Positions 16,926 through 34,976 are shown, numbered from the stretch's first letter. The stretch is DNA of 34,976 nt from an uncultured Bacilli bacterium (GCA_944333345.1 CALVKW010000002.1:1-34976), one strand, 5' to 3'. Notes: generated by a model not told the origin, from the letters alone. A program made the numbers and translations.

Positions 16926-18482
16926 ATGATTATCAGGAAACCGTATGCTTTTTTAATTAAACATTTTAGAAAAATTCATATCTTTTTATTACTTTTGTGT
17001 GGTTATGTTTATTATAAAAATATGCAAACTCGTTCCTTTGTGTCTGAGTTTTTACAGTTAGAGTCTTATGATGCTTATTATGAACCAATTACTAATTATG
17101 CTAGTTTTTTGGCTATCATTTTTTTAATTATTATTATTGCTCTTTCGATTACTTTAATTATTTTATTGCGACATAAAAAGAAACCTTGGAAATTATATAT
17201 TGTTCCGGCTATTTCTTATTTGTTTTTATTAGTTATATTCTTTTTTACTATTTCTTATTTTTCGAGTTATCGAGAGGGTAGTGGTACTACCGTTATACGT
17301 GCTCTTAATGATTTGTTGTTTATGGCAACTATTCCGCAATACATTGTTATTGTTATTTTATTGGTTCGTATTTTTGGTATTGATTTAAATAAGTTTGATT
17401 TTAAGTCTGATCAGGAATATTTGGAACTTAATGCGGAAGATAGAGAAGAAGTAGAAATTAATATTGATGTAGATAAGGAAAGTTTTAAAAGAGCTTTTAA
17501 AAGGTTAAAACGTAATATTGGTTATGTTTATCAGGAACATAAACTTATTTTTCATGCTATTAGTGTTATTTTTGTTGTTTTTAGTGTGATATCTATTTAT
17601 AATTATGTTTTTATTGTTCATAAATCTTATCAGGAGGGAGATACCTTTCAAAGTAGTGGATATTCTATTACTGTGCATCATAGCTATTTTACAAATAAGG
17701 ATTATAGTGGAACCGTGATTTCTAATAGTAGTAACTTTATTATATTAGATCTCACTATTCAAAATAATACTTCTCAAAGAAATGTTAATTTTAATCGATT
17801 TCATATTATGAACGGAACAGAAAATTATTCTCAAACTTATCGTACTTATCAGCTTGAATTTCAAGACTTAGGTCAGACTTATGATAAGCTTACTTTGAAA
17901 AACGGTGAGAGTCAAAGATTACTGATGGTTTATCGTGTTGCAAAAGATTTAGATCCTTCTAAGTTTGTTCTTTATTATCAAGAGTTGGATAATAATCGTC
18001 CTTATTTAAGAAAAATTAAATTGAATGTAGAAGATTTAAGTGAAATTAAAAAACAAGGTGAAAAGTTATTGCAAGAGGAAGAAGTTATTAAATTTGGAGA
18101 AGAAGAAATATCTTTTTCGATAGAAGAATATTTTCTAACTAATCAAATTAGTTATAATTCTAGGGTTTGTTCTAGTAGTAATAATTGTTATTCTAAAGCG
18201 AATGTTATGTATGCAGATTCTAACCGATTATTCTTGCAAATTTTCTTTACTTCTGATTATTTTACGGGTAAAGATTTCGTTGACTTTTCTAAGGAATATG
18301 GTAAAATTGATTATATAGATAATAAAGGGGAATATCATGAACTTTCCGTTGTGGATGCAGTTAATTATAATTATGATGGAAATTATATGTATTTAGATGT
18401 CCCTATAGAATTAGCAGATGCAAATGAGATTCGGTTGGTATATACGGTGAGAAATCAAGAGTATACTTACAGACTAAAATAA
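16926..18482 (+). CDS. Polytopic membrane protein with a large beta-rich extracytoplasmic C-terminal region; first gene of the accessory supercluster
   Basis: RBS AGAGGGTG. About 4 N-terminal TM helices, a charged linker, and a further TM 'LIFHAISVIFVVFSVISIYNYVFIV'. The region 'SNFIILDLTIQNNTSQ...GESQRLLMVYRV' is reminiscent of DUF4352/Ig-like domains (weak). Confidence 0.65.
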   Translation: MIIRKPYAFLIKHFRKIHIFLLLLCGYVYYKNMQTRSFVSEFLQLESYDAYYEPITNYASFLAIIFLIIIIALSITLIILLRHKKKPWKLYIVPAISYLFLLVIFFFTISYFSSYREGSGTTVIRALNDLLFMATIPQYIVIVILLVRIFGIDLNKFDFKSDQEYLELNAEDREEVEINIDVDKESFKRAFKRLKRNIGYVYQEHKLIFHAISVIFVVFSVISIYNYVFIVHKSYQEGDTFQSSGYSITVHHSYFTNKDYSGTVISNSSNFIILDLTIQNNTSQRNVNFNRFHIMNGTENYSQTYRTYQLEFQDLGQTYDKLTLKNGESQRLLMVYRVAKDLDPSKFVLYYQELDNNRPYLRKIKLNVEDLSEIKKQGEKLLQEEEVIKFGEEEISFSIEEYFLTNQISYNSRVCSSSNNCYSKANVMYADSNRLFLQIFFTSDYFTGKDFVDFSKEYGKIDYIDNKGEYHELSVVDAVNYNYDGNYMYLDVPIELADANEIRLVYTVRNQEYTYRLK

Positions 18483-18492
18483 GGAGATTTAT

Positions 18493-20295
18493 ATGGATAA
18501 AAAGAGAGTAGTGAAATACCTTAAAATTGCTATTGTATGTATCGTAGTCGCATTGTTTTTATGGTTTTTAGTGATTCATCCTCTTCTTACTTTTAAAGGA
18601 TATGAAAATCAAATTGAAAGTGCGGCGAAAAGATATTTTGAACTTAATGAGAGTCAATTGCCAACTGGAACTAGAGTTAAGACCCTTAGTGTTCAAGAGT
18701 TATTTGATCAAGCTTATTTAAAGGAAGATTTTTATGTTCCTTTTTCTAAGAAACCTTGTTCTATTACAGAAAGTTGGGTAAAGGTTAGAAAAGAAGATGG
18801 GGAATATAAATATTATACTTATTTGCAATGTGGTGTATTATCCTCTTTAGTTGATCATGAAGGTCCAGAAATTATTTTAAATGGTGACGATGAAATTACG
18901 ATTGATCAAGGTGATAAGTATGAAGAATTAGGAGTTAAAAGTGTTGTTGATAATTCTGATGGTAAGATGAATGTAGATGATGTTGAAATTGATTCTAGTG
19001 ATGTCAATACAAATGTTACTGGTACTTATAAAGTTACTTATACTACTCGTGATAGTTTGAATAATCGAACTGAAAAAGTAAGGGAAGTAAGCGTTGTTTC
19101 TAGAATTAAAAATATCGTAAAGAATAATACTGGTGATTTAGGAGTTTATACCGGTTCTAATCCTAATAATTATATGTATTTTTCTGGTATGGTATTTAGA
19201 ATAATTGGGCTTGATGGTGATAATGTTCGTATTGTTGCTGAGGAAGATATTAGTAATGTTAATTATTCTGCTATTGATGATTGGCTAGAATATTATTATG
19301 ATCATTTGACTGATAAGGCTAAGGATTATATTGTTGAAAATAAATATTGTAATATGAAATTAGATGATAATAGTGTTGGTAGTGTTACGGATTGTAGTTC
19401 TTATACTGGAAATCGTAGTGTTGCTATTTTATCAGCAAATGATATTAATCAGGCACAGGGGGATGATGGTAATTATTTATATCCGCTTAGTATCTCTTGG
19501 GTATTAAATACTAAGAATAAAGACGAGGCTTATACAACACGCAATTTCTTTTATAATTCTTCTTCTAATTATATGAGTTTTGATAAAGATTATAATTTTG
19601 GGGTTCGTCCTGTTCTTACTATTCAAGGAGATGTTTTTGTAGTAGATGGTGATGGTACGAAAGAAGACCCATATTCTATTGGCGATTTTACTTATGCTAA
19701 AACTGGAGATAAGGTAAATAGTAGATATAGTGGTGAATTTTTAACTTATTCTGGTATTTTATGGAGAATTATCGATGTTGAAAAAGGTGGAGTTACTAAA
19801 ATTATTTCTACTTCTACCTTAAACAGTGATGGTCAAAAAATACAAACTCATTATACTACCGAAGGAGAACGTAAGATTTATAATCCTAAACAACGAGGAA
19901 ATATTGGTTATTTTATTAATAATCAGGCTAGACAATATATTGATACCGACTATCTTGTTACTCATGAAGTAGAAGTTCCTATTTATAAAAATGAAATAAA
20001 ATATGGTAAAGAAGTGGATACGAAAACTTATGATGTTTTATTAGCTGCTCCTAATATGTATGAGATGTTTAGCGCTTTTGAATTTAATAGTTCTACTTTA
20101 CATTCTTATTGGTTGATTAATTCTTCTCGTCAAAGTAATACGAAAGCGGTTATTGCTGATCTTGGTACATCTTTGTATGGAAATATATATGATAATACTG
20201 ATTATGGTGTACGTCCTGTTGCATTTTTAGATGAAAATTGTACTATTGTTAGGGGAAATGGTACATTTAATAATCCATATTCTATTGCGAAGTAA
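18493..20295 (+). CDS. Membrane-anchored modular surface protein: pilin-head-like N-domain, Ig-like (DUF5011-type) domain, two tandem ~190-aa 'GVRPV' modules
   Basis: N-terminal TM 'IAIVCIVVALFLWFLVI'. 'EGPEIILNGDDEITIDQGDKYEELGVKSVVD...TGTYKVTYTTRDSLNN' matches the DUF5011-type Ig pattern. Modules aa ~205-396 and ~400-600 both run Y..(F/Y)SG..(F/W)RII ... SYW/SWVLN ... (F/Y)GVRPV ... G(D/N)GT..(D/N)PYSI. Confidence 0.7.
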   Translation: MDKKRVVKYLKIAIVCIVVALFLWFLVIHPLLTFKGYENQIESAAKRYFELNESQLPTGTRVKTLSVQELFDQAYLKEDFYVPFSKKPCSITESWVKVRKEDGEYKYYTYLQCGVLSSLVDHEGPEIILNGDDEITIDQGDKYEELGVKSVVDNSDGKMNVDDVEIDSSDVNTNVTGTYKVTYTTRDSLNNRTEKVREVSVVSRIKNIVKNNTGDLGVYTGSNPNNYMYFSGMVFRIIGLDGDNVRIVAEEDISNVNYSAIDDWLEYYYDHLTDKAKDYIVENKYCNMKLDDNSVGSVTDCSSYTGNRSVAILSANDINQAQGDDGNYLYPLSISWVLNTKNKDEAYTTRNFFYNSSSNYMSFDKDYNFGVRPVLTIQGDVFVVDGDGTKEDPYSIGDFTYAKTGDKVNSRYSGEFLTYSGILWRIIDVEKGGVTKIISTSTLNSDGQKIQTHYTTEGERKIYNPKQRGNIGYFINNQARQYIDTDYLVTHEVEVPIYKNEIKYGKEVDTKTYDVLLAAPNMYEMFSAFEFNSSTLHSYWLINSSRQSNTKAVIADLGTSLYGNIYDNTDYGVRPVAFLDENCTIVRGNGTFNNPYSIAK

Positions 20296-20299
20296 GTAG

Positions 20300-21109
20300 G
20301 TGATTAGTGTGAGTAAAAGAACAAGAATGTTAATTTTAAAGAAAAAGAAAGTGTTCTTATTGATAGGGATTCTATCTTTTTTGTGTTTTATTAGTGCAAT
20401 TGGTTTTCTGTTGTTTTATGATTATTATCCTGTAGAATCTAGGGTTAGTAATGTGGAGCGGTATGCTTCTAGCGATTCTAGTGATTATACTACGGTTGGG
20501 TGGCTTCGAGTGCAAGGCACTAATATTGATTATCCGGTTATTTATGCACCAGATTATGATTTAAGTATGAAAACAGATGATTTTGTTTGGACCGAGGTAA
20601 GCAGTGATAGATTATTAAATAAAGTTAATATTATTGGACACAATATATTAAATTTATCCACTCATCCCCTTGTTACTTCAGAAAATCATAAACGTTTTGA
20701 ACAGTTAATGAGTTTTGTATATTTAGATTTTGTAAAAGAAAATAAATATATTCAATATACTTTCCAAGATAAGAATTATATTTATAAAATATTTTCTATC
20801 TCCTTTGTTGATCATGATGATATAGGGTTGTATGCGTTCGAAGATTATACAAAGGATGAAATGAATGATTATATACAACAGTCACTTCAAGATAGTATAT
20901 TTGAGTTTGATATAGATGTTGATGAAGATGATAAAATTATTTCTTTGGTTACTTGTACTAGAATGTTTGGATATGGTAATGATATTGAGTTTAGAGTCGA
21001 TGCAAGATTGGTTAGAGAAGGTGAAATGAAAATGAATTACGGTGTTCAAAAAAGCGATAAGTATCAAGAAATTGATGATATTATGAAAGGTGGGGAAAAT
21101 AATGTATAA
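20300..21109 (+). CDS. Class B sortase-like cysteine transpeptidase (membrane anchored)
   Basis: Collinear with S. aureus SrtB as I remember it: 'TVGWLRVQGTNIDYPVIYA' (cf. IVGWIKLSGTSLNYPVLQG), 'VNIIGHNI' (catalytic His), 'KIISLVTCTR' (TLxTC Cys) and 'EFRVDARLV' (Arg). The start is uncertain: GTG 20300, GTG 20309 (RBS AGGTGA 5 nt upstream) or ATG 20327. Confidence 0.8.
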   Translation: MISVSKRTRMLILKKKKVFLLIGILSFLCFISAIGFLLFYDYYPVESRVSNVERYASSDSSDYTTVGWLRVQGTNIDYPVIYAPDYDLSMKTDDFVWTEVSSDRLLNKVNIIGHNILNLSTHPLVTSENHKRFEQLMSFVYLDFVKENKYIQYTFQDKNYIYKIFSISFVDHDDIGLYAFEDYTKDEMNDYIQQSLQDSIFEFDIDVDEDDKIISLVTCTRMFGYGNDIEFRVDARLVREGEMKMNYGVQKSDKYQEIDDIMKGGENNV

Positions 21110-24011
21110 GCATAGAAAAAAGAGAATATTAGGGGTATTAATTATTTTTGCTTTTGTTGTTGCTATTGGTTCTTTTGTTGGTATTCATAATCTGTTAGCA
21201 ACTAAGGAAACGACTAATGTTTCTAGAACGAAAACAGCAGCAAAGACTACAGATGGTAGTAAATGTAAAGATGTTGCTTATCTTCGTGATCATTATAAAG
21301 TACAGGTTGATTATGAGGTTACTGATACTTCACTTATTGCGCATCTTACTGCTGAAAAGGGGTCCTTTTCTATCGATAATTGGAGTAGTGATATTGATAA
21401 TCCATTTCTTGTTAATCCTCAACAAGCCGGGGTGCTTTCTAAAGATAATCCGATTGATTTAGTTTTTAGAAAAGATTCTAGTGCTAGTGTCGTTGTACAT
21501 TTTATATTGGCAGAAACTGATGAATTGTGTTTATCTTATAATGATGCTACTACGGATGAAACTGGGAAAAAGGTTGGTACTTATGACTTTAATATGAATT
21601 TTGAATTGAATGATTTAACTAGTACTTCCCTTGAGGTTAATAATGAAAATTATAATGGTATGTGTCGAGTTATTCGTGATGGAACTAATTTTAGCGATTA
21701 TTCTTCTTATTTAAAAGGAATTACTTCTGCTGATATTGAGAAGTATAATGCTACTACTAATAGTAAGGCATTGGATCATTATCGTACTATTTTACCGTTT
21801 TGTTTCCCAGATACGTCAACAGGCGGAATACCTAGTGTTACCTTTACTTATGATGATGAAACTTTAGGAGGAATGATTGTTGCGGCTGTTTCTAGTTTTA
21901 AGATAATTAATTCTTCTGGTTCTACAACGTCTAGACCTGATGGTGACGCTTTTATGGAAGCTTTTCAAGATGCCAAAGATGCTGCTTTTGGTTCAGGACA
22001 TAATTATACGATACCTGAGGGCGCTACGTTAGAGCAAATTAAGAGTATTCTTAGTGCTGATAATAAGTTGACTTGTGATTGGAAATTACAACCTCAGAAG
22101 GATGAGGCTGGTAATATTATTGATTATTATGTAAATAAAGATTATTATTACGCTATTCAGACTGAGGAGGAAGAACTTACTTATGAACATCAGTATACTG
22201 GTGGTACTCAGTATACTGATGGAGGGGCTTGCAAGCGTACTTGTGAAGAGTCTGTCGTTGTAGAGTATGGACCTCCAGTTGCTTCCAAAGCTGGCCTTTG
22301 TTTTGAATACAAAGTTAAAGTTACGAGTAGAGTAGTTTGTAATACTGATGTAAAAGGGTTAATTGCTCCTCCTATTACTTCTGTTTGTACACCTGTACCT
22401 ATTTGTAATGACATTGCTGGTTTTGAAAATCAAGGTGGACCTACGGAAGAGTATGATGCTTGTATTCAAGAATGTGATGGTGGAAAATATTCACAATCTT
22501 GTAGTAATAAATGTTATGATGAAGTTTATGGTGATGATTCTAAGAAAGAAAGTAATCCATTGGCATTGAATTATGAGGATGCAGTGGTATCTCCGGTTGC
22601 TATTGATTTCCCTGGTTATGCTGGAAAATATAAATGGAATGGAAATGTAATTTATTGGGAAAATTCTGGTACCAGTGAAACTTATGGTCGTTGGTATAGT
22701 TATGGTAGTCGTGATCAACGTACTAGATCTGATCATAGTTCTGGTGCTTATCATGCTGCAGATAATGGATTTAAGAGAGAAGTATATGGTAATGATGATT
22801 GTGACGATCCTTGTGAGTGGACCAGTTGTTCGAAAGATACTTATTTAAATGAGGAGGAAGCAAGCAAATCTTACTCACATAATCTACAGATTTATAATAA
22901 TGCTTTATCTTCTTGTCAAGCTGCTGCATCATGTACTACCAAGACTGCCTATTTTGAAATTAGTGTTGATTATTTACACGCTAATGAATCCGGAAATATT
23001 GTAAAGGAGAATATTAAATTTCCTGCTTCTACCCAAGCATCGTTACCTAGTGGTGATAATCAAACTACTTCTAGTCCACAGGGTACGAATATTTTCTTAA
23101 GTGATGGAGAAGATTATAAGGGTTATGATGGTTGTTATGTAAGTAGTGATGCTAAAGATTGGTATCAGGCTGAATGGAGTTTCCCTGGTACATGGATTAA
23201 TAATAAAACTGGTGAAATTTCTTATGAAGATAAGATGGATGATAAGTTATGGCACTTACGAGAAGATAAATTCTGTATTCCATTAGATGCTCAAAGTGTT
23301 AATACAAAATGGTGGGAATGGAGTGAAGTTGGTAGAGAGTGTTATACCGAAGCTGAAATAGAAGAAGAAATAAAAGATAATTATAATATTCATGCAAAAA
23401 CAACTAATTTTGGATATTTTGGTTGGGACTTTACCTTCGAGTGTTTTTATGCATTGAGAAATGAAGTTTGTGATACTAGTATTGATGGATGTTGTGATGG
23501 CCCTGATCCAGAACCTGATCCTCCTGGTCCTGGTACAACGATTCCTACTAGAGATTATGCATTTAGAATTATAGACACTTCTGATATGTTCCCTGAAACG
23601 AGTACTTCTACTGAAGAGGACAGTGTGGGTGAAGGCTATTCTAAGACCGGAAGAACTCCTGGTTATAACTGGAATTTGAATGGTGAGGTTATTGGAGCCC
23701 TAACTGCTAAGAATAGTAATTACGCGATTAACCCTACTGCTTTGATTGCTGATATTCAACAACGTCAATCTTCCATTTATGATGGTACGAAATATCTAGA
23801 TTATCGTTTCGTGCTAGATACTGAAGATTTGGCAGAAATTAGAAGCTATAATAACCAAAGATATAATGGTAGTCGTGATATGCAATATACTGATTATTTG
23901 GGTAATACAACTATTAAGAATGGTGTTACTGTATATGAAAGTGAATTAATTAATAAATATGCAACGAAGCAAGGAACTCCTGGAGTTAATAATGATGGGG
24001 AGGATGATTAA
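21102..24011 (+). CDS. Large (~970 aa) cysteine-rich exported/membrane-anchored protein of unknown family, with a Pro-rich hinge (CCDGPDPEPDPPGPG)
   Basis: ATG 21102 (RBS AAGGTGGGG 7 nt upstream) is preferred over GTG 21090, giving an 8-nt overlap with the sortase gene. N-terminal 'KKRILGVLIIFAFVVAIGSFVG' anchor. I count 27 Cys by hand after the anchor, many as close pairs. No domain recognised. Confidence 0.7.
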   Translation: MYKHRKKRILGVLIIFAFVVAIGSFVGIHNLLATKETTNVSRTKTAAKTTDGSKCKDVAYLRDHYKVQVDYEVTDTSLIAHLTAEKGSFSIDNWSSDIDNPFLVNPQQAGVLSKDNPIDLVFRKDSSASVVVHFILAETDELCLSYNDATTDETGKKVGTYDFNMNFELNDLTSTSLEVNNENYNGMCRVIRDGTNFSDYSSYLKGITSADIEKYNATTNSKALDHYRTILPFCFPDTSTGGIPSVTFTYDDETLGGMIVAAVSSFKIINSSGSTTSRPDGDAFMEAFQDAKDAAFGSGHNYTIPEGATLEQIKSILSADNKLTCDWKLQPQKDEAGNIIDYYVNKDYYYAIQTEEEELTYEHQYTGGTQYTDGGACKRTCEESVVVEYGPPVASKAGLCFEYKVKVTSRVVCNTDVKGLIAPPITSVCTPVPICNDIAGFENQGGPTEEYDACIQECDGGKYSQSCSNKCYDEVYGDDSKKESNPLALNYEDAVVSPVAIDFPGYAGKYKWNGNVIYWENSGTSETYGRWYSYGSRDQRTRSDHSSGAYHAADNGFKREVYGNDDCDDPCEWTSCSKDTYLNEEEASKSYSHNLQIYNNALSSCQAAASCTTKTAYFEISVDYLHANESGNIVKENIKFPASTQASLPSGDNQTTSSPQGTNIFLSDGEDYKGYDGCYVSSDAKDWYQAEWSFPGTWINNKTGEISYEDKMDDKLWHLREDKFCIPLDAQSVNTKWWEWSEVGRECYTEAEIEEEIKDNYNIHAKTTNFGYFGWDFTFECFYALRNEVCDTSIDGCCDGPDPEPDPPGPGTTIPTRDYAFRIIDTSDMFPETSTSTEEDSVGEGYSKTGRTPGYNWNLNGEVIGALTAKNSNYAINPTALIADIQQRQSSIYDGTKYLDYRFVLDTEDLAEIRSYNNQRYNGSRDMQYTDYLGNTTIKNGVTVYESELINKYATKQGTPGVNNDGEDD

Positions 24012-24016
24012 GTTTT

Positions 24017-24481
24017 ATGAATAAAGCAATGTTAACGGTTGGTATTATCATCTTGAGTTTAGCAACATTATTAATGATTAATATTATTTCCAATTATTCA
24101 ACAGGTAGTGAGTTAGATTACTACCTGGTGAAGGAAACATCGGAAGCTGCTATGATTGATGCTATTGATGTTGCGTATTATCGTGAAAATGGTTTGCTTC
24201 GAATTGATAAAGAAAAATTTGTAGAAAGTTTTATTAGAAGGTTTGCTGATACTGTTGATAACACTAGAAATTATCAGGTTTCATTTTATGATTTAAATGA
24301 AGTTCCACCTAAAGTTAGTGTGAAAGTTGATTCTTCTACTGTATTGAGTTTCAAGGGATCTAATTTGGAGATGACTACGCAACTTGATGCTATTTTAGAA
24401 AATACTTATGATACTGATCCATTAGTTACTAATGAACTTACGGACTTTAATAGTGATATGGGTAAACCTATAGAAGAATAG
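24017..24481 (+). CDS. Small membrane-anchored protein, candidate minor pilin/pseudopilin
   Basis: 154 aa. An N-terminal hydrophobic helix 'AMLTVGIIILSLATLLMINII' is followed by a ~125-aa globular part. It sits immediately upstream of the cpaB-like gene. No Gly cleavage motif. The function call is weak. Confidence 0.45.
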   Translation: MNKAMLTVGIIILSLATLLMINIISNYSTGSELDYYLVKETSEAAMIDAIDVAYYRENGLLRIDKEKFVESFIRRFADTVDNTRNYQVSFYDLNEVPPKVSVKVDSSTVLSFKGSNLEMTTQLDAILENTYDTDPLVTNELTDFNSDMGKPIEE

Positions 24482-27730: not shown

Positions 27731-28515
27731 TGGTAGAGATTATTGTAGTTGGTGCTATTATTATATTTATTTTGATATATAATAATACAATTGATAAGAA
27801 TAAGTTTATCGCGGATAATGAAAAATATTTTGATATTTTACGGGAAGATGACTATAATTTTTTAGTTTATGCTAAATATGGTGAAGATGTGGATCCTAAT
27901 CAGTTATTTCGGAAAAGGATATTTTATGCCATTATTGTTGGAATTATTTTCTTATTTGTCTTTTTAAATCAATTATCATTTTTAAATGTTGTCTTTTGTG
28001 TCGTTGTGGCAGTTTTAATATTTAAGATGCCATACATGCAACTAAAATCATTTTATAAAGCACATTTGCATGATATTGATGTTATGTTGCCATACTATTT
28101 AAAGAGTTTGGAAATTTTGATTCAACATTATACGGTTCCAGTGGCTTTGGGAAAATCTATTGATGATGCTCCTGATATTTTTAAACCAGGCTTACGTAAG
28201 CTTATTGAACGTATTAATTCTGGAGATTCTACTATTGATCCTTATATGGAATTTGCCAATACTTATCCTGTAAGGGATTCTATGCGTATGATGCGTTTAT
28301 TATATCGTTTGGGACTTGGTTCTCAGGAGAGAAAGCAAGAGAGATTAATGATGTTTTCTAGAACGGTTTCTAATTTGCAGAATAAAGCCAGAGAAACAAA
28401 ATATAAAGAACGTCTTAATCATATGGAAAGTCAGACTATGGTAATGCTTGTAGTTACTGGTGCTGGAACGATGGTAGTTATTTTGATTTCTATGATGATG
28501 ATGTTCAATATGTAA
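27730..28515 (+). CDS. TadB/TadC-family (T2SS-F-like) pilus platform membrane protein, second paralogue
   Basis: 261 aa with the same TM/helical-domain/TM layout ('DIDVMLPYYLKSLEILIQHYTVPVALGKSIDDAP...'). 1-nt TAATG overlap with the preceding gene. Confidence 0.65.
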   Translation: MVEIIVVGAIIIFILIYNNTIDKNKFIADNEKYFDILREDDYNFLVYAKYGEDVDPNQLFRKRIFYAIIVGIIFLFVFLNQLSFLNVVFCVVVAVLIFKMPYMQLKSFYKAHLHDIDVMLPYYLKSLEILIQHYTVPVALGKSIDDAPDIFKPGLRKLIERINSGDSTIDPYMEFANTYPVRDSMRMMRLLYRLGLGSQERKQERLMMFSRTVSNLQNKARETKYKERLNHMESQTMVMLVVTGAGTMVVILISMMMMFNM

Positions 28516-28531
28516 AAAAAAATAAAATATA

Positions 28532-28560
28532 TTGTTAAAAAAAAATTATCTTGTTATAAT
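28532..28560 (+). promoter_or_regulatory. Strong SigA-type promoter in front of the flp-like pilin gene
   Basis: TTGTTA (28532-28537), 17-nt spacer AAAAAAAATTATCTTGT, TATAAT (28555-28560) with an extended -10 TG (28552-28553). Confidence 0.6.
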
Positions 28561-28615
28561 ATATATAGTATATGATATTGATATATACAATAGGAAAGGA
28601 TGTGTATGTTTTTAA

Positions 28616-28798
28616 ATGAAAGCAGCAACAGGTGAATTAAACTTAACAGTTATTACTCTTATTGCCATTGCAGCAGTAATTGGATTTTTCTGGATTATGT
28701 GGCCTAATATTCAAAAGGCAATTAATAGTCAATGGAATAATATTTCTGGTACAGAAGGTCCTAGCGCAGGAGTTATTATTGTTGATTATAATAAATAA
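28616..28798 (+). CDS. flp: Flp-size (60 aa) type IVc-like pilin
   Basis: 'MKAATG/ELNLTVITLIAIAAVIGFFWIMW': a short basic leader, Gly, then a ~22-aa hydrophobic helix and a short tail. The size, its position after tadC and its own promoter fit a major Flp pilin. The canonical G/xxxxEY motif is absent. Confidence 0.6.
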   Translation: MKAATGELNLTVITLIAIAAVIGFFWIMWPNIQKAINSQWNNISGTEGPSAGVIIVDYNK

Positions 28799-28817
28799 AA
28801 GAGAGGTGTAGAAGAAG

Positions 28818-29261
28818 ATGCGGGATGCTTTTGGTGGAGTTGTCAATTTAGCAATGATTGTAGTGTTCTTGGTTTTGGTTTGTGGCTATTTGGCATTTAA
28901 TGTTAATTATACGAAAGCATTCCGTGTTAAAAACTACATCATTACATCAATTGAACAGTATGAAGGTAATTGTGATGAAGGAACAACTTGTTATCAAAAG
29001 ATTAGTGATTATATTAATCGCATAGGTTATAACGCTCCAGATTTTACTATGGATGATCCTGACTATAAGTGTATGCATGGTTATTGTTATAAGCAATTTG
29101 ATGCTTCTAACGAAGCTGGTGTGTCTGAAGGAGAAAAACAAGTGTATTATCGAGTTGTTACTCAAATTAACATTGATATTCCAATTATTAATAGAATTAT
29201 GCCGGGTTTAAGAATTTTTCAAGTTTCTGGTAATACGAAGTTAATTACACTGTTTAATTAG
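28818..29261 (+). CDS. TadE-like pseudopilin (minor pilin)
   Basis: 147 aa. 'MRDAFGG/VVNLAMIVVFLVLVCGYLAF' has the same G-x-[LV]-N-L-x-x-I start as the flp-like product. It is followed by a globular part with 4 Cys, and sits immediately after flp. Confidence 0.5.
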   Translation: MRDAFGGVVNLAMIVVFLVLVCGYLAFNVNYTKAFRVKNYIITSIEQYEGNCDEGTTCYQKISDYINRIGYNAPDFTMDDPDYKCMHGYCYKQFDASNEAGVSEGEKQVYYRVVTQINIDIPIINRIMPGLRIFQVSGNTKLITLFN

Positions 29262-29275
29262 GATAGGGTGATTAC

Positions 29276-30256
29276 ATGAATGTTATTGTTAGTAATGTAC
29301 AACGAAATATTTTATCTGGGTTGGACGTTGATGTTATTAAAAGTATTTCTGGAGAATATGATGCTAATGAATTGGTGGAAATGTTTAAAAACTTTTTTTA
29401 TAATAAAATGATTTTAGATGTTACTGCTATTAAAGATTTTCATAATATAAAGAATTTTCAGACTATTGCCATGGGATTAGATGTTGAAAAGATAGTATTC
29501 TTTTTGCCAGAGGGAACAGATGTTTGCACCTCAGCTTTTTTATCTAAATTAGTTTCTATGGGAATTTATAATTTTACTACTAATGTCGAAGGTGTTAAAT
29601 ATTTGCTGGAGCATCCAAATACTTATAAACAGGTTGCTCATATTCAACAGTTAAATGATGTTTCTAATACTGTTGCTCATAAAGTGGAAAATGGTGCGAA
29701 GATAATTGGTGTTAGAAATGTTACGGAGCATGCTGGAGCAACTACATTTATTTATATTTTGAAGAAAGAATTGAAGGTTCATTTTGGCGATAGTATTATT
29801 GCTTTAGAGATTAACCGAAGTGATTTTCAATATTTCGGTGATAAGAATATGGTGTCTATTACCGCAGATCAAATTCATACTTATTTGACAAGATTTGCGG
29901 GTGCTACCGTAGTCTTAATTGATTTGAATGATTGCCCTGATGATTCTTTTTGCGATGATGTGTTGTATTTATTGGAACCATCTACTATTAAATTAAATAG
30001 ATTAATGAGAAGAAACCATATGATTTTTTCTAAGCTTCAACAAAAAAAGATAGTTTTGAACAAAAGTTTATTAACAAATAAAGATATCACAGATTTCGAA
30101 TATGAAGCAAAGGCTAAAGTATTTTATAATATGCCTCCTTTAGATGAACGTAAAAAAAATCCTATTTTTGATGATTTCTTATCTAGATTAGGATTGATTC
30201 AATCTAAGGAAGAAAAGAAAGAAACTGGTAAAATATTTGGTTTATTTAGAAGATGA
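29276..30256 (+). CDS. TadZ/CpaE-like protein: receiver-like N-domain plus ParA/MinD-like domain with a degenerate Walker A
   Basis: 'KIIGVRNVTEHAGATTFIYILKKEL...IIALEINRSD...TVVLIDLND' is collinear with the '..G.KGGvGaTT.a.nLA...v.lvDlD' region of CpaE/TadZ, but the KGG lysine is missing. The N-terminal ~125 aa has a flavodoxin-like alternating pattern. Confidence 0.45.
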   Translation: MNVIVSNVQRNILSGLDVDVIKSISGEYDANELVEMFKNFFYNKMILDVTAIKDFHNIKNFQTIAMGLDVEKIVFFLPEGTDVCTSAFLSKLVSMGIYNFTTNVEGVKYLLEHPNTYKQVAHIQQLNDVSNTVAHKVENGAKIIGVRNVTEHAGATTFIYILKKELKVHFGDSIIALEINRSDFQYFGDKNMVSITADQIHTYLTRFAGATVVLIDLNDCPDDSFCDDVLYLLEPSTIKLNRLMRRNHMIFSKLQQKKIVLNKSLLTNKDITDFEYEAKAKVFYNMPPLDERKKNPIFDDFLSRLGLIQSKEEKKETGKIFGLFRR

Positions 30257-30258
30257 TG

Positions 30259-30287
30259 TTGACAAAAAAAAAATTATACGTTAATAT
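30259..30287 (+). promoter_or_regulatory. Consensus SigA-type promoter in front of the T4SS-like module
   Basis: TTGACA (30259-30264), 17-nt spacer AAAAAAAAATTATACGT, TAATAT (30282-30287). Confidence 0.65.
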
Positions 30288-30314
30288 ATATGTGATGTCG
30301 AAGGAGAGTTGTTT

Positions 30315-30674
30315 ATGTTAGATTTATTTCAAATTGGAGACGTAGGAGAAGGAACTATCGATGAAAACTGTGGTGGTTTAGCACCTGTTGTCAAAATTGT
30401 TAAATTTGGAGTTTTCCCTATTGTTCAAATTGGTATTCCAATTTTATTAATTGTATATGGGACTATCGATTTAGGTAAAGCCGTTATTTCAAGTGATGAA
30501 AAAGAAGTCAAGCAAGCGCAAAGTCGTTTGATTAAAAGATGTATTTATGCAGCAGCTATCTTCTTTATTACTACAATTGTTACATTAATCATGACTTTGG
30601 TTGGTACTGGAGCAGATCCTACAGAAACTGATACTAATAGTTGGGCAAACTGCTGGAATACTCTTGAAAGATAA
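30315..30674 (+). CDS. Small 2-TM hairpin protein, VirB2/TrbC-like (pilin-like conjugal transfer protein) candidate
   Basis: ATG 30315 (RBS AAGGAGAG 6 nt upstream) is preferred over TTG 30309. Two TM helices ('FPIVQIGIPILLIVYGTIDLG', 'CIYAAAIFFITTIVTLIMTLVG') flank 'SSDEKEVKQAQSR'. It is the first gene before VirB6/VirB3/VirB4-like genes. Confidence 0.5.
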   Translation: MLDLFQIGDVGEGTIDENCGGLAPVVKIVKFGVFPIVQIGIPILLIVYGTIDLGKAVISSDEKEVKQAQSRLIKRCIYAAAIFFITTIVTLIMTLVGTGADPTETDTNSWANCWNTLER

Positions 30675-30680
30675 TTTACA

Positions 30681-30707
30681 TAGCAAAATAATTGCTATTT
30701 TTTTTTT
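30681..30707 (+). terminator. Weak hairpin + T10 run after the VirB2-like gene (possible partial terminator)
   Basis: TAGCAA (30681-30686) / TTGCTA (30692-30697), 5-nt loop, T-run 30698-30707. The stem has only 6-7 bp and 2 GC pairs. Confidence 0.3.
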
Positions 30708-30720
30708 ATTCTGTTATACT
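30692..30720 (+). promoter_or_regulatory. Possible internal promoter overlapping the hairpin
   Basis: TTGCTA (30692-30697), 17-nt spacer, TATACT (30715-30720) with TG at 30712-30713. Confidence 0.4.
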
Positions 30721-30754
30721 TATTCTGTATAAATGTTTATATGGAGTGGTGACA

Positions 30755-31957
30755 GTGAAACATTTTAAGTTTTCTTTATTTATTTTTGTCTTTGGAATTG
30801 TGCTTTTTATTCCATATAATACAAATGCTTTGGGAAACAAAGTAGTAAATTGTAACTATCAATTTACGAATCAAAATGATCAAGATATTGAATTGACTTA
30901 TGAAGTTTATTCTGATGGAAGTGTTTCTCTTCCTTTTGCAGATGCTTCTAGTTATGTTAATGATGGACGCACTTGGTATCATAGTGATGGTTTTTCTAAT
31001 ACATTTTATAATATTGCAAAATTAAATTCTTCTACCATTACTTGTCCATCTATTTATGTGCAAGAGGATGATTCTTCTGTGACAATATATCCTAACCCGC
31101 TTTATAAGGATTCTTGTACTGGAAAGTGTTATAATATTAGCGCTGCTACACCTAAACTTTCTAGTTGGGCAACAGATACAGGGATTGAAGCGAAAAGGGT
31201 AATCTCTACTTGTACAGGTTCTAGTATGGGATTTTATAATAGACAAAGTTATATCTTTCCTTATTTTAGAATGTTTTCTGATGGTACAAAAGAGTGGTCT
31301 ATTGATGGGAATACTTATGTTCCGGTAACGGATGCTATTACTGGTAGGATTAATGCTAGCGAAACTTTTTCTATTACGGTTAACGATTCTTTATTAAATT
31401 CTATTTATAGTTCTTCTAGACCATCTTGTCCTACTAGGATTTATCGTTGCGTTACGGAAACCGAGAATGGCTATTCTTATGAGTTGTCTACTTCCCCAAA
31501 TCAATGCTCTGGGGATGAGTTGAGTACTAATGATAGTCAAGAGTATGGTTCTAACTACTATAATGCGGCTTATGGTGATCCAGGTGATGGAAGTGCTAGT
31601 AGCGAGGATGGATCTGTTAGTATTGATGATTTGAGAGAAGAATTAGAAGTTTATAATCAAGATGCCGATTGTAATTCTATTTTGGGAAGTACGGAGGATG
31701 AAAATTCCGTTGCGTGGTTGTTGCAGCAATTATTAAACTATATAAAGATATTAGGACCGATGTTAGTGGTTATTTTAAGTAGTATGGATTTTGCGAAAGC
31801 AATTATAGCTAGTGATGATGAAAATATGAAAAAGGCTGAAAAGAAATTGATGATTCGTTTGGTATTGGCTGTTGCTTTATTCTTAATTCCTACATTAGTT
31901 AGTGTTTTATTAAATGTTTTCGGAATTACAACTAATCAGATATGTGGTTTACAGTAA
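30755..31957 (+). CDS. Secreted Cys-rich protein with a C-terminal VirB2-like 2-TM hairpin module
   Basis: GTG 30755 (RBS GGAG 8 nt upstream) gives a clean signal peptide 'KHFKFSLFIFVFGIVLFIPYNTNA/LG'. The track start TTG 30692 lies inside the terminator. I count 10 Cys by hand. The last ~96 aa (31667-31954) align without gaps to the 30315 product. Confidence 0.65.
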   Translation: MKHFKFSLFIFVFGIVLFIPYNTNALGNKVVNCNYQFTNQNDQDIELTYEVYSDGSVSLPFADASSYVNDGRTWYHSDGFSNTFYNIAKLNSSTITCPSIYVQEDDSSVTIYPNPLYKDSCTGKCYNISAATPKLSSWATDTGIEAKRVISTCTGSSMGFYNRQSYIFPYFRMFSDGTKEWSIDGNTYVPVTDAITGRINASETFSITVNDSLLNSIYSSSRPSCPTRIYRCVTETENGYSYELSTSPNQCSGDELSTNDSQEYGSNYYNAAYGDPGDGSASSEDGSVSIDDLREELEVYNQDADCNSILGSTEDENSVAWLLQQLLNYIKILGPMLVVILSSMDFAKAIIASDDENMKKAEKKLMIRLVLAVALFLIPTLVSVLLNVFGITTNQICGLQ

Positions 31958-31973
31958 AGGTAGGTGATAATTA

Positions 31974-34001
31974 ATGACTGATAATGCGAATGCTGGTGTT
32001 GTTTGGGATCTTATTCGAAGTTTTGCTTCTGCTGTTAATATTGGAATTTACACCCTTTTATCATTTATGTATGAAATTTTCTTTAATGTTTCCACTGTTC
32101 AGTTGTTTGCAAATGAGACAATTAAGAATTTCTATGGCCGTATTCAATTAATCATCGGTGTGTTTATGATTTTTAAATTGGCAATTTCTATCTTGCAAGG
32201 AATTATGGATCCTGAGAAGTTTGCTGGCCCCAAAGAGGGGTTCGGTAGTATTATTACAAGAGTTATTATTTCTCTTGCCTTACTTACTGTTTTAGTTCCT
32301 ATTAATGTTCCAGATGTGGAAAATGCTAATTCGTTTGAAAAACATATTAATAATAATGGGCTTTTATTTGGTACTTTATATTCGTTACAAGAACGTATTC
32401 TTTCGAATAATACTTTGGGTAGACTTATTCTTGGTACGACAGATGAGGCCACGGAGCTTACGGCTGACCAGCAGGCGGCAGGTATGACACAAGCAGATAT
32501 ACAAAATCAGATGTTGCAACGGTCGGCTAGGATTTTTACTTCTACGATTTTAAAAGGATTTGTACGTATTAATTTATTACCAGAAGAAGAGAGAGTTAGT
32601 GATGATGAAAGTGATCAACAAAACTGGTATTGTGGTCATGATTTGAGTGATCAGGCAGTCAATGCTATCGAAGCTTATCAAGCTTTGGATGTTGCTCCTA
32701 GTACAATATTAAGTGATGATATTATTAATGTTGATTGCGATATTCAATCAGGTTTTCTTGGTATTCGATGGCTTGGTGGAGAAGGTAAATATGTTTTTGC
32801 TTTTAACTGGATAGTTTCTGCTATTGTTGGTGTTATTTTCTTAGTTGTTTTAGTTTTATTTACGGTTGATATTGCCATTCGATCTATTAAACTTTCTATC
32901 TTAAGACTTTTAGCACCAATTCCAATTATTAGTTATATAGAGCCTAAATCATCTAAAGATGGGGGAATGTTTTCTTCCTGGGTGAAAATCCTTACTAGTA
33001 CCTATTTGGATTTATTCTTACGACTTGCTATTATTTACTTTGTTATTTTCTTAATTCAAGATATGATTGCAAATGGTATCATTATTAATCAAGCTACTGG
33101 TACTGTTGGTATTGTTTCTGTCATCTTTATTTGGATTGGTTTATTCTTCTTTGCGAAGATGGCACCTAAATTTATTAAAGATGCACTTGGTATTAAGGGT
33201 ACTAGTATGACTAATTTTGGTTTAGGTGGTACTCTTGCTGCTGCTGGAGCCCTTCGTCAAGGAGGTTCTTTGATGGATGCATGGCAAGCTGCGGGGGATG
33301 CTACTGATGCTCAACTCCAGGCTTATAATCAAGGGAAACCGTTACCTGGTCTGGGTATGTCATACAATGCTGGTAAGGATTTTGCTGCAAAGATGTTAAC
33401 TGGAGATGAGCGTATGACTGCTCGAAGAATGAATCAAGGTAAATGGCAGTTATGGGCATCTGGTATTACTCCACAGAGTGGTAAGAGAGTTCATGATGCC
33501 GCTGTACAAGCTCAGGCATTCTCTGATCGTATGTCTTCTGACTTCGTTGCTGGTGTCGGTCAATATATGGATAAAGATGGAACCATGCATGATTATATGT
33601 ATGAGGATGATAATCATCAACTTCATAGTGTTATGGACTGGGTTACTGACGAAAGGGGTAATAGAGTCCAAGTTCTTAATAAAGATAAGGCTTCTCTTGC
33701 TTTGGCACAGCAGAGAACTATTGCTGGAAAACTTGCTTCACGTGATAAGAAAATTGATGCTGAGCTTCGTAGAACTGGTCAAGCTCGTGGATATCGTGAT
33801 TCTGTCCGTCGTAATAATGAAATGTCTACTCATCCTGTTACGCAAGCTGTTGTTGATCGTTACTTGTCTAAGCGTCACGATCAGTCTTATAATCCTGCAG
33901 ATAAAAAATATGGTGAAAAAGGTCCAGATACGTATCAGGCATACGATTCTGATGATTTCCAAGGATATGCAACTGGTTACGATATAAAAACACATAATTA
34001 A
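31974..34001 (+). CDS. VirB6/TrbL-like polytopic T4SS channel protein with a ~230-aa hydrophilic C-terminal tail
   Basis: 675 aa, RBS AGGTAGGTGA. There are at least 6 hydrophobic helices in two blocks (aa ~15-110 and ~275-400) separated by a soluble loop. Its size, topology and position between VirB2-like and VirB3/VirB4-like genes match VirB6 analogues (Tn916 Orf15, ConG, TcpH types). Confidence 0.6.
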   Translation: MTDNANAGVVWDLIRSFASAVNIGIYTLLSFMYEIFFNVSTVQLFANETIKNFYGRIQLIIGVFMIFKLAISILQGIMDPEKFAGPKEGFGSIITRVIISLALLTVLVPINVPDVENANSFEKHINNNGLLFGTLYSLQERILSNNTLGRLILGTTDEATELTADQQAAGMTQADIQNQMLQRSARIFTSTILKGFVRINLLPEEERVSDDESDQQNWYCGHDLSDQAVNAIEAYQALDVAPSTILSDDIINVDCDIQSGFLGIRWLGGEGKYVFAFNWIVSAIVGVIFLVVLVLFTVDIAIRSIKLSILRLLAPIPIISYIEPKSSKDGGMFSSWVKILTSTYLDLFLRLAIIYFVIFLIQDMIANGIIINQATGTVGIVSVIFIWIGLFFFAKMAPKFIKDALGIKGTSMTNFGLGGTLAAAGALRQGGSLMDAWQAAGDATDAQLQAYNQGKPLPGLGMSYNAGKDFAAKMLTGDERMTARRMNQGKWQLWASGITPQSGKRVHDAAVQAQAFSDRMSSDFVAGVGQYMDKDGTMHDYMYEDDNHQLHSVMDWVTDERGNRVQVLNKDKASLALAQQRTIAGKLASRDKKIDAELRRTGQARGYRDSVRRNNEMSTHPVTQAVVDRYLSKRHDQSYNPADKKYGEKGPDTYQAYDSDDFQGYATGYDIKTHN

Positions 34002-34023
34002 TGTTATAGGAGTGTGATAGATA

Positions 34024-34341
34024 GTGAATTATTTAATACCTGCTAATACGAAGAAAGGTCAATTAATTTTAGGATTATTTCGGCCTTTCGATTTAGCTTT
34101 ATTTTTATCAGGGGTTATGGTTACGATTATATTACTTGCATTTATGCCTTTAAGTTCTACCTGGGTTACTATTTTGGTTATTAGTCCTGCGGTTATTTGT
34201 GGCTTTTTGGTAATGCCAGTACCTTATTATCATAATATTTTAAATATTATTGTAGAAATGTATGAGTTTTTTACTACAAATCAGACTTATCATTGGAAAG
34301 GTTGGTGTTTCATGAATGAAAAAGAAAATCGCAGGAAGTAA
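34024..34341 (+). CDS. PrgI-family / VirB3-like small membrane protein
   Basis: 105 aa, GTG start. 'IPANTKKGQLILGLFRPFDLALFLSGVMVTIILLAF' follows the PrgI-family start (vPkd...ki.fGLt.rQl + 2 TM). It lies upstream of the VirB4-like gene. Confidence 0.55.
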   Translation: MNYLIPANTKKGQLILGLFRPFDLALFLSGVMVTIILLAFMPLSSTWVTILVISPAVICGFLVMPVPYYHNILNIIVEMYEFFTTNQTYHWKGWCFMNEKENRRK

Positions 34342-34867
34342 CTTTACGGAAAATTGGTTGCCTGTTAAAGCTATTCAAAATGGGATGATTATTACTTATG
34401 ATAATTTAAAAGTATCTGGTGTAAAGATTGCACCTCGTAATATCTTTATTTTGGATGCACAAGCTCAAGATAATGTACTAATTAGTTTGAGGAACTTTTA
34501 TAATATGTTGGATTTTGAGTTTTGGTTAGTTGTTGCAGATAGACCTGTTGATATTTCTGTATATATGTCACAGCTTCAACTTCTATATAATGAAACACAG
34601 TTACCTTCTATACGTAAATTAATTATGCAGGATATTGAGAAGGGAAATACTTTTATTAATAATAATATTGTAGATACTGAGTATTACATTTTATTTAAAG
34701 AAAAGAATCCTGATGATGTTCAGAAGAAGATTCGTATGTTGATTAATGGTCTTGCTACCTGTGGACTTAATGCTTCACAGACTAGTAATGATGACTTAAG
34801 AATTATTTTAGATAATTTCTTAAATGGGGGAACTACTACTGAATTTGGGACGGTGATGCCTGTATGA
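34316..34867 (+). CDS. T4SS-module protein of unknown function, possibly a stand-alone VirB4-N-terminal-like domain
   Basis: 183 aa. It overlaps the PrgI-like gene by 26 nt and the next ORF by ATGA. 'WLPVKAIQNGMIITYDNLKVSGVKIAPRNIFILDAQAQDNVLISLRNFYNMLDFEFWLVV' resembles the start of some Firmicute VirB4/TraE ATPases. No Walker motifs. Confidence 0.45.
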   Translation: MKKKIAGSNFTENWLPVKAIQNGMIITYDNLKVSGVKIAPRNIFILDAQAQDNVLISLRNFYNMLDFEFWLVVADRPVDISVYMSQLQLLYNETQLPSIRKLIMQDIEKGNTFINNNIVDTEYYILFKEKNPDDVQKKIRMLINGLATCGLNASQTSNDDLRIILDNFLNGGTTTEFGTVMPV

Positions 34868-34976
34868 GTACCAGCTTAAGAAGTCAACTTGCTCCTAAGG
34901 GGCTTAGTTTTAATCCTAGTGATTTCTTTATTAGTGATAAGTATGCAACTATTATGACAGTTGTTTCTTATCCTAA
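34864..34976 (+). CDS. VirB4-like conjugal transfer ATPase, extreme N-terminus (truncated by the window end)
   Basis: This ORF is not in the supplied track. The ATG at 34864 overlaps the preceding TGA (ATGA). Translation: MSTSLRSQLAPKGLSFNPSDFFISDKYATIMTVVSYP..., which matches the 'AP..i.f......i..g.ky.r.l.v..yP' start typical of Gram-positive VirB4 homologues. Only 37 codons are visible. Confidence 0.45.
   Translation, partial: MSTSLRSQLAPKGLSFNPSDFFISDKYATIMTVVSYP

Follow-up and report, generated by a model that had tools for sequence, protein, structure and literature searches.

A conserved chromosomal gene block of RF39 gut bacteria that probably couples a Tad-like module with a complete Gram-positive type IV secretion system

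Inspection of a 34,976-nt stretch of DNA from an uncultured Bacilli bacterium (GCA_944333345.1 CALVKW010000002.1:1-34976; hereafter the window) identified the greater part of a block of 23 genes, ~27 kb in length, that belongs to the chromosome of bacteria of the order RF39. The block holds a Firmicutes-type tight adherence (Tad)-like module followed by a complete Gram-positive type IV secretion system (T4SS), and probably encodes a single envelope machine in which contact through a filament would precede VirD4-dependent export of a substrate. Its relatives on conjugative plasmids of Bacillus are the transfer regions of pBMB67 and pLS20, from which it differs in lying on the chromosome and in having no relaxase gene. 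What appears to be new is this chromosomal, relaxase-less and order-wide RF39 copy of a pairing that is known but under-recognised; a second new point appears to be that the plasmid regions described as 'VirB11' belong to a Tad-like module.

Within the window, 18 open reading frames (ORFs) of the + strand were found tightly packed between the terminator of greA and the window edge, with intergenic gaps running from -26 nt (34316 vs 34341) to +100 nt (28515 to 28616). Since 17 of the 18 genes upstream of the block likewise lie on the + strand, and the GC skew is strongly positive throughout the window (nearly all of its genes are + strand genes, and its GC content is ~30%), the co-directionality of the 18 ORFs is uninformative by itself. 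These ORFs, g01–g18, are continued past the edge by five genes, as judged from a relative of 94% identity (locus L003); the extension was read from this locus because exact-match contigs for the VirB6 gene of the window were short only. The five genes encode a VirB4 of 596 aa, a SpoIID-type hydrolase of 763 aa, a membrane protein of 261 aa, a VirD4 and, as the closing gene of the block, g22, a 394-aa surface protein that is a paralogue of g02. An earlier reading made from the window sequence alone (the sequence-only reading) had described the 18 ORFs with the same range of gaps, and had named a Tad/Flp pilus half and a T4SS half. The ORFs were recovered at the positions it gave or close to them, and both halves as named were borne out by family, structure and homologue searches.

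The Tad-like half comprises the following genes:

24017-24481, + strand: g05, DUF5411 protein with one N-terminal transmembrane (TM) segment (Pfam DUF5411, 168.7 bits)
24496-25314, + strand: g06, CpaB/RcpC-like protein (RcpC 26.5 bits, cut-off 28.8; TIGR03177 34.9 bits)
25347-26813, + strand: g07, TadA/CpaF/FlaI-type T2SSE secretion ATPase (T2SSE 97.5 bits, cut-off 24.9)
26828-27730, + strand: g08, 300-aa polytopic membrane protein, candidate TadB/C-like platform protein (from context, fusions and homologues)
27730-28515, + strand: g09, 261-aa platform protein with a predicted GspF/T2SSF-fold cytoplasmic domain (AlphaFold2 and Foldseek)
28616-28798, + strand: g10, 60-aa pilin-like protein (from alignment; N-terminus MKAATGELNLTVITLIAIAAVIGFFW, nearly invariant across species)
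28818-29261, + strand: g11, 147-aa candidate minor pilin or pseudopilin (N-terminus MRDAFGGVVNLAMIVVFL)
29276-30256, + strand: g12, TadZ-like two-domain protein (receiver-like N domain and MinD/ParA-like domain, Walker A degenerate)

The DUF5411 protein is a hallmark of the Firmicutes Tad-like module, and occupies an equivalent position in Holdemania, Anaerorhabdus and pBMB67. A hidden Markov model (HMM) of the g06 family matched RcpC/SAF proteins in both Holdemania (E = 1.4e-30) and pBMB67 (E = 7e-32); over the CpaB/RcpC homologues of Holdemania, Anaerorhabdus and pBMB67, which themselves bear RcpC or SAF matches, the values ranged from 1e-28 to 1e-32. A PDB sequence search with g06 was empty. 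The family matches suggest that the CpaB/RcpC component of a Tad system is present as g06. The TadA/CpaF-type T2SSE ATPase of such a system is g07, the product of which holds the motifs GETGSGKT, TIEDTLEL, LLSEVR and GHNILSTIHA that the sequence-only reading had listed; Walker A, the Asp box, Walker B and the His box are all there. Against PDB sequences it scored 74 bits with FlaI, 72.9 with CpaF and 57.9 with VirB11. The g07 product also carries a C-terminal low-complexity tail of ~170 aa (window 26300-26813), rich in Thr, Val, Ser and Pro, which is absent from the shorter ATPases of Holdemania (351 aa) and pLS20 (402 aa).

The gene next but one to that of the ATPase, g09, encodes what its structural model indicates to be a platform protein of the GspF/T2SSF fold. 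A full HMMER search with g09 gathered 552 relatives, and the diverse alignment was used for AlphaFold2. The resulting model had a predicted local distance difference test score (pLDDT) of 93.5, and its top seven Foldseek matches in the PDB were SpoIIIAB and EpsF/OutF cytoplasmic domains (probability 0.93-1.0, TM-score 0.58-0.67). Distant relatives of g09 are labelled 'T2SS protein F' or 'TadB' in the source databases; g09 itself had no Pfam or PDB sequence match. For g08, searches of Pfam, NCBIfam and PDB profiles gave no direct match, and hhalign detected no similarity between g08 and g09 with profiles of fewer than two effective sequences (Neff <2). Fusions of g08-like and g09-like sequences of ~500 aa are, however, found among metagenomic proteins, and two of them match T2SSF at 19 bits (cut-off 25.2), the match falling in the g08-like half. 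Such a fusion is the usual two-domain platform layout. In both Holdemania (3.5e-17) and pBMB67 (1.4e-10), a g08 homologue comes after the ATPase. The fused proteins, ~500-610 aa in length and from lineages other than RF39, include P0322, P0348, P0358, P0361, P0366, P0371 and P0386.

The pilin-like protein g10 matched no Pfam family, Flp included. Its Glu7 is in register with the Flp-like 'EY' of small proteins of Holdemania and Anaerorhabdus, and is the sole motif residue that aligns. The g11 product resembles g10 in its short, basic leader, its Gly and its hydrophobic helix; it had no TadE match in Pfam, and its HMM gave weak matches (5e-05) to proteins of 114-116 aa that occupy the corresponding place in Holdemania and Anaerorhabdus. 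The pilin-like proteins of the window (28616-28700) and of loci L087 (6635-6814) and L089 (6746-6895) show no recognisable Gly-ending leader before the hydrophobic helix, and in all three a Glu is conserved at position 7 (MKxxxxE). Proteins of this kind may be assembled without a prepilin peptidase.

The last gene of this half, g12, was empty in sequence-family searches; for g08, g09 and g12 alike, profiles of Pfam, NCBIfam and the PDB yielded nothing beyond noise. Its AlphaFold2 model (pLDDT 81) placed 3FKQ second in Foldseek, over both domains (E = 9e-05), followed by ParA, FlhG and HypB. Entry 3FKQ is a two-domain protein of E. rectale, which we take to be the TadZ structure, and the model accordingly points to g12 as the TadZ/CpaE component. 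In the nearest outgroup contig (L084, 2591-2680) a g12-like gene stands immediately behind a g09-like one without intervening pilin genes, so that the arrangement of the Tad-like module varies beyond RF39.

The T4SS half begins 58 nt further on and reaches the window edge:

30315-30674, + strand: g13, VirB2/TrbC-like protein with two TM segments, T4SS_pilin family (PF18895, 13.2 bits in the window copy)
30692-31957, + strand: g14, secreted protein, variable at the N-terminus and ending in a T4SS_pilin module (PF18895, 19.2 bits, residues 340-406)
31974-34001, + strand: g15, VirB6/TrbL-like polytopic channel protein of 675 aa (TrbL_4 26 bits, cut-off 27)
34024-34341, + strand: g16, VirB3/PrgI-like protein of 105 aa (two TM segments)
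34316-34867, + strand: g17, TraC-like protein of 183 aa, complete ORF (precomputed PF26593 on an identical copy)
34865-34976, + strand: g18, first part of the VirB4 ATPase, which runs past the edge (ATG at 34865; 596 aa in relatives)

Although PF18895 scores low in the window copy of g13, 18 of the 29 members of its family match it (best E 2.9e-06). The most likely start of g13 is the ATG at 30315, which follows the ribosome-binding site GAAGGAGAG. The C-terminal module of g14 aligns with g13. The g14 ORF spans 421 aa, and its true start probably lies ~21 codons later, near 30755, because relatives call the gene at 400 aa. Across species (L004-L083) the g14 product varies from 108 to 435 aa, with a highly variable N-terminal domain and a conserved C-terminal module. 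Many orthologues of g15 bear PF19597, and the g16 family HMM matches the annotated PrgI-family protein at the equivalent position of pBMB67 (E = 2.8e-04). The sequence-only reading had placed the start of a VirB4-like ATPase at the end of the window. A VirB4 does begin there, at 34865; the ORF at 34316-34867 is a separate one, g17, which has as its pBMB67 homologue the 227-aa protein encoded before VirB4 (E = 1e-19), and effectively represents a separate VirB4 N-terminal-type domain, i.e. a split VirB4.

In L003, VirB4 matched AAA_10 (43 bits) and P-loop_TraG (42.6 bits), VirD4 matched T4SS-DNA_transf (195.5 bits) and TraG-D_C (88 bits), and the 763-aa hydrolase matched SpoIID (40 bits). By these matches, the block holds the VirB4 and VirD4 of a Gram-positive conjugative T4SS, together with its VirB6, VirB3/PrgI-like protein and cell-wall hydrolase. 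The T4SS-DNA_transf family is annotated as coupling proteins of conjugative DNA transfer, so the VirD4 points to export. No VirB8-like component was identified in the T4SS half, where g20, a candidate for that role, was without a structural test. The expectation that the rest of the system would lie downstream held for the remainder of VirB4, the cell-wall hydrolase and VirD4, but not for a relaxase or integrase, neither of which was found within 10 kb. The VirD4 of L003 ends in a low-complexity tail rich in Met, Pro and Asn (19500-20305).

Homologues of both halves were found on pBMB67 (NC_009841), a pAW63/pXO2-like plasmid. They comprise CpaB (104 bits), the secretion ATPase (114 bits), g08 (1.4e-10) and g09 (2e-21) on the Tad-like side, and g17 (1e-19), VirB4 (278 bits) and VirD4 (260 bits) on the T4SS side; the pBMB67 VirB4 is the best plasmid match to that of RF39, at 29.6% identity. 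On pLS20 of Bacillus subtilis, gene 37 is a T2SSE ATPase (36% identity, 174 bits), and of two membrane proteins of ~250 aa, that of gene 39 is a g09 homologue (hhalign 96.4%); the RF39 VirB4 and VirD4 likewise have homologues on this plasmid. Comparison by hhalign of shallow RF39 profiles with single pLS20 proteins was mostly uninformative, and a clear match was obtained only with the diverse g09 alignment.

The distribution of the block was examined with one genome per species, which yielded 80 loci from metagenome-assembled genomes of uncultured gut 'Bacilli', 'Tenericutes' or 'Mycoplasmatota'. Loci of Ca. Faecimonas are among them, and this genus is assigned to GTDB order RF39, family CAG-611 (PMC8035907); the lineage is therefore identified as RF39. 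Genes g04–g22 were present and colinear in all 80 loci, as far as the contigs extend, and neither half was missing from any RF39 locus where the contig covers it. Identity across species was 85-96% for VirB4, 66-96% for the platform proteins, 63-88% for VirD4 and 35-69% for VirB6. The sequence-only reading had proposed to ask whether the two halves co-occur and co-vary: they are found together, in the same order, in ~80 species, and their divergence is correlated across loci (Spearman 0.58, p = 4e-6). The greA–g01 junction and the position of an NlpC/P60 gene described below are kept in closer relatives. The intact ORFs and strong conservation indicate purifying selection, not decay. A search of the literature on RF39 with T4SS or pili found no description of this system.

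Two promoter-like sites lie within the block:

28532-28560, + strand: promoter-like site before the pilin gene, extended -10 TGnTATAAT (from scan and conservation)
30259-30287, + strand: internal promoter TTGACA-17-TAATAT before the T4SS half (from scan and conservation)

Promoter-like hexamers were not enriched in the window (118, vs 101.5 +/- 11.7 in shuffles). The promoter and terminator scan did no better than expected by chance on DNA this rich in AT, and the sites were therefore judged by their conservation among loci. In the 58-nt gap between the halves, TTGACA-N16-18-TAnnnT followed by a conserved GAAGGAGAG was found in 74 of 77 related loci, which upholds the earlier proposal that the T4SS half has its own promoter. 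Related loci shown alongside the window visibly retain the TGnTATAAT-type site ahead of the pilin gene, and the looser TTGnnn-N16-18-TAnnnT was present in 78 of 78. This suggests at least three transcription units, one running from the upstream genes through the platform genes, one from the pilin gene through the TadZ-like gene, and one comprising the T4SS genes.

The most likely mechanism for this system, by analogy with conjugation systems homologous to it, is contact followed by export. In the liquid environment of the gut, the Tad-like filament and the surface proteins of the block would establish and maintain contact with a neighbouring cell, and the T4SS would then export a VirD4-chosen substrate into the contacted cell. 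This substrate might be DNA, if a relaxase encoded elsewhere processes it, or else proteins.

Several observations weigh against such a machine, the functions of which all derive from homology. Neither the window and the block nor the 10 kb downstream yielded a relaxase, an integrase or a replication gene, and no oriT candidate or att-type boundary was noted, although no search aimed at oriT or att repeats was made; the DNA-transfer function put forward in the sequence-only reading is thus not supported, and the block is not a self-transmissible element. As to filament assembly, the g10 N-terminus, MKAATGELNLTV, is without G/XXXXEY, and neither the window products nor the downstream extension include a prepilin peptidase (TadV/CpaA, family A24). 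Direct family-level sequence support was obtained for none of g08, g10 and g11. The assignment of g07 to the TadA or the VirB11 clade is weakly resolved, its NCBIfam scores of 121 bits (VirB11) and 109 bits (TadA-type) both falling under the cut-off with a slight lean to VirB11. In Holdemania and Anaerorhabdus no T4SS genes were found within 10 kb of the Tad-like module. Finally, the housekeeping genes that flank the block are equally syntenic among closer relatives; synteny is generally high around the locus, and adjacency in RF39 is by itself no proof of functional coupling.

These last two points also favour another explanation, namely that the block consists of two independent neighbours, a Tad-like adhesive pilus for attachment to host or mucus, presumably also the role of the stand-alone module of Erysipelotrichales, beside a separate T4SS, kept adjacent by the stable gene order of these small genomes. 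A homologous Tad-like module does stand alone in Holdemania massiliensis and Anaerorhabdus furcosa, the flanking genes are as syntenic as the block, and the T4SS half has a conserved promoter of its own. Nevertheless, this arrangement seems unlikely. The pairing recurs on unrelated replicons (pLS20, pBMB67 and a Cutibacterium acnes plasmid; PMC5696575), for which chance adjacency is no explanation; the Tad-like and T4SS genes of pLS20 lie on the same strand inside the described conjugation operon (PMC8557374); and no covered RF39 locus lacks either half. It is more improbable still that the block is a DNA-import machine in the manner of ComB of Helicobacter or Ced/Ups of Sulfolobus, in which the filament would capture DNA and the channel would take it up, supplying an auxotrophic cell of small genome with nucleotides or genes. 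To our knowledge, the known importers ComB and Ced are without a coupling protein. The block, in contrast, encodes a full VirD4 with TraG-D_C, conserved at 63-88% identity, and its nearest homologues are exporting conjugation systems. The presence of VirD4 weakens the likeness to Ced-type importers drawn earlier, and is the reason for ranking a Ced-like importer lower. The lack of a relaxase in the block would suit import, as would the reduced, auxotrophic genomes of RF39 (reported in work cited in PMC12306168) and the reports that Tad pili are necessary for DNA uptake in Micrococcus luteus and Liberibacter (PMC4322843, PMC8513845).

The homology of the gene set to plasmid transfer regions, and the separate ORF of the VirB4 N-terminal-type domain (g17), might also be taken as signs of an integrative and conjugative element (ICE), or of its decaying remnant, next to greA. 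This is very improbable. The same context and gene order recur in ~80 species with housekeeping genes on both sides and without integrase, relaxase or replication gene; the ORFs are all intact and strongly conserved (VirB4 85-96%, platform 66-96%), the GC content of the block overlaps that of the rest of the window, and the split before VirB4 is common to pBMB67 and pLS20. The ICE reading was rejected on the flanks, on conservation without patchy presence, and on the failure to find integrase and relaxase. Given its colinearity in the 80 species loci, its housekeeping flanks and the absence of relaxase or integrase within 10 kb downstream, the block is a vertically inherited chromosomal system, not an ICE.

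Starting from the contact-and-export machine, a bolder proposal is conceivable, though doubtful: a conjugation-type machine would have been domesticated in RF39 as a core organelle for obligate interaction with other cells, with the corollary that a genuine Tad-type mating filament is encoded by the 'VirB11' regions of pLS20 and of pAW63/pXO2-type plasmids. Possible roles of such an organelle are attachment to and feeding on partner bacteria, the injection of effectors into them, or the routine exchange of chromosomal DNA within the population. Attachment to a partner and effector delivery would resemble what has been proposed for Saccharibacteria.

Upstream of the Tad-like genes, the block opens with four genes for membrane and surface proteins:

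16926-18482, + strand: g01, polytopic membrane protein of 518 aa, DUF4352-like domain extracellular (DUF4352, 24.4 bits)
18493-20295, + strand: g02, 600-aa membrane-anchored surface protein with an Ig-like domain (Pfam Bact_surface_Ig-like, 50.4 bits)
20300-21109, + strand: g03, sortase-like membrane protein (Pfam Sortase, 27.7 bits, cut-off 26.6)
21090-24011, + strand: g04, 973-aa secreted or anchored protein, cysteine-rich (27 Cys; one N-terminal TM segment)

The DUF4352 score of g01 is below the Pfam cut-off of 25.9; hydropathy indicated four TM segments, and an orthologue of 68-69% identity follows greA in relatives. Searches with g02 cross-matched g22 in related loci, and g22 itself has a weak DUF6273 match; anchored surface proteins are thus encoded at either end of the block. 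The g03 product contains the motif LVTCT, and no LPXTG-type sorting signal was found in any of the 23 cluster products. No Pfam family was matched by g04, which is kept directly upstream of the DUF5411 gene across related loci at 26-55% identity. Large surface proteins fill the equivalent module in Holdemania, Anaerorhabdus and pBMB67, and g04, counted with the Tad-like module as its large surface protein, is a candidate adhesin or filament-associated protein.

Two further features of the window lie outside the block:

9300-10136, + strand: outlying 278-aa protein with an N-terminal VirB2-like module of two TM segments and an NlpC/P60 hydrolase domain (NLPC_P60 65 bits, PF18895 23.9 bits)
16725-16751, + strand: intrinsic terminator of greA, AT-rich hairpin and T-run (read from the sequence), the upstream boundary of the block

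The N-terminus of the 278-aa protein aligns with the g13 family module. Its gene stands among housekeeping genes ~7 kb upstream of the cluster, at an equivalent position in six related metagenome loci, and likely belongs to the system. The greA terminator was overlooked by the terminator scan, having fewer than three G-C pairs; the adjacency of greA and g01 is kept in loci L095 and L096. Positions 1-16724 are occupied by housekeeping genes, among them those for an AMP-binding enzyme, a hybrid histidine kinase, a rhomboid protease, ireB, ruvX, a DUF1292 protein, mltG/YceG, an O-methyltransferase, U32 peptidases and greA. The stretch between these last two includes a gene (13571-15340), conserved in relatives, for a 589-aa protein with a Zeta-toxin-like P-loop kinase domain and HD and HD_assoc phosphohydrolase domains. 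Downstream, the block is followed by genes for a rhodanese, DedA, RmuC, a tRNA synthetase, trigger factor and Lon. The GC content is ~0.27-0.40 in the block and ~0.25-0.33 in the remainder of the window; the ranges overlap, and that of the block increases only toward the 3′ edge. A scan of the window with Rfam gave zero family matches.

RF39 is a prevalent uncultured lineage of the human and animal gut with genomes of ~1.4 Mb, of which the ~27-kb machine takes up close to 2%. An investment of this size, intact and syntenic in ~80 species, suggests that the machine is likely central to RF39 life, and makes it a concrete target for cultivation, imaging and metatranscriptomics. The comparison shows that what had been 'VirB11' and unknown genes in pLS20 and pBMB67 is part of a Tad-like module with platform and pilin-like proteins, to which pBMB67 adds CpaB- and CpaE-like proteins. 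As pLS20 is genetically tractable, a role of a Tad-type filament in monoderm mating-pair formation is directly testable. That Gram-positive systems seem pilus-less was restated in 2024 (PMC11730352); a Tad-type mating filament in pLS20 and pAW63/pXO2, if true, would overturn this view.

Among known systems, the Tad-like half has its counterpart in two cultured Erysipelotrichales, Holdemania massiliensis and Anaerorhabdus furcosa, where the homologous module stands alone between housekeeping genes in the order pilin, DUF5411, RcpC/CpaB, T2SSE ATPase, g08-like, g09-like, small TM protein and large surface protein. Unlike RF39, these clusters are without a TadZ-like gene, and their pilins keep the Flp-like 'EYG' motif that the RF39 pilin has lost. 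In TANB77, also uncultured gut Firmicutes, an operon was assigned to Tad by structure, as here (PMC11680825). Of systems with both kinds of gene, the large plasmid of Cutibacterium acnes has genes resembling VirB4, TcpC and FtsK with a Tad/Flp locus immediately downstream, and a link between pili and conjugation apparatus was posed as a question (PMC5696575). Compared by description only, it resembles RF39 as a monoderm replicon pairing Tad and conjugation genes, and differs in being actinobacterial, in its TadE-type pseudopilins of the canonical kind and in a pilin motif of the G/SSTVET type. Saccharibacteria and other candidate phyla radiation (CPR) bacteria are reported to conserve VirB4, VirB6 and VirB2-like proteins lineage-wide and to have type IV pili in the genome as well, pili and T4SS not being reported as one cluster (PMC7427843). 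The likeness to RF39, again by description, is that of a small-genome lineage with a chromosomal T4SS; Saccharibacteria and CPR are partner-dependent, and the role in episymbiosis comes from work in those organisms. Two further systems, named in the sequence-only reading, resemble the block in that a type IV filament assists a VirB4-type DNA transfer system. The IncI plasmid R64 has a thin pilus, on a diderm plasmid and of type IVb; the Ced system of Sulfolobus is a DNA importer that is not known to have a coupling protein, encoded at a locus separate from Ups.

The closest parallels are the two Bacillus-type plasmid systems, and it is these, with the printed discussion of the C. acnes plasmid (PMC5696575), that contradict the suggestion of the sequence-only reading that such a composite was undescribed. 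Its further statement that Gram-positive T4SSs lack a VirB11-class ATPase is outdated for the pLS20 (PMC8557374) and pAW63 (PMC9673590) families. Like RF39, pLS20 (genes 28-74) has, on one strand, an adhesin, small TM proteins, a T2SSE ATPase, platform-type proteins and a T4SS. The Tad-like genes lie within the stretch described as the conjugation operon, and the authors named gene 37 a 'putative VirB11' and genes 38-41 'unknown', and stated that pilus homologues are absent (PMC8557374). Genes 38-41, which follow the 'VirB11' ATPase in locus L090 (pLS20, NC_015148; 9446-13334), look like a reduced Tad-like module. After the Tad-like genes the order is VirD4, VirB6, a VirB3-like protein, a 192-aa protein and VirB4, so that VirD4 precedes VirB6. 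Conjugation of pLS20 has been demonstrated experimentally. Unlike RF39, it is a plasmid with a relaxase, and no CpaB-like or TadZ-like protein was detected in it.

In pBMB67, DUF5411, TrbL-family, PrgI-family and large surface proteins hold positions equivalent to those in RF39. Here too the replicon is a plasmid, with a MobP3 relaxase, and the T4SS genes come before the Tad-like genes, which follow ~8 kb later. A CpaE-like/ParA-like ATPase (AAA_31) is encoded between CpaB and the secretion ATPase, and unlike g12 it keeps the Walker A lysine. The ATPase of the pAW63 family has been described as VirB11 (PMC9673590), and in the literature searched nothing was found to link pAW63 or pXO2 to Tad components. 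A split before VirB4 is common to all three systems, being represented by g17 in RF39, by the 227-aa protein in pBMB67 and by the 192-aa protein in pLS20.

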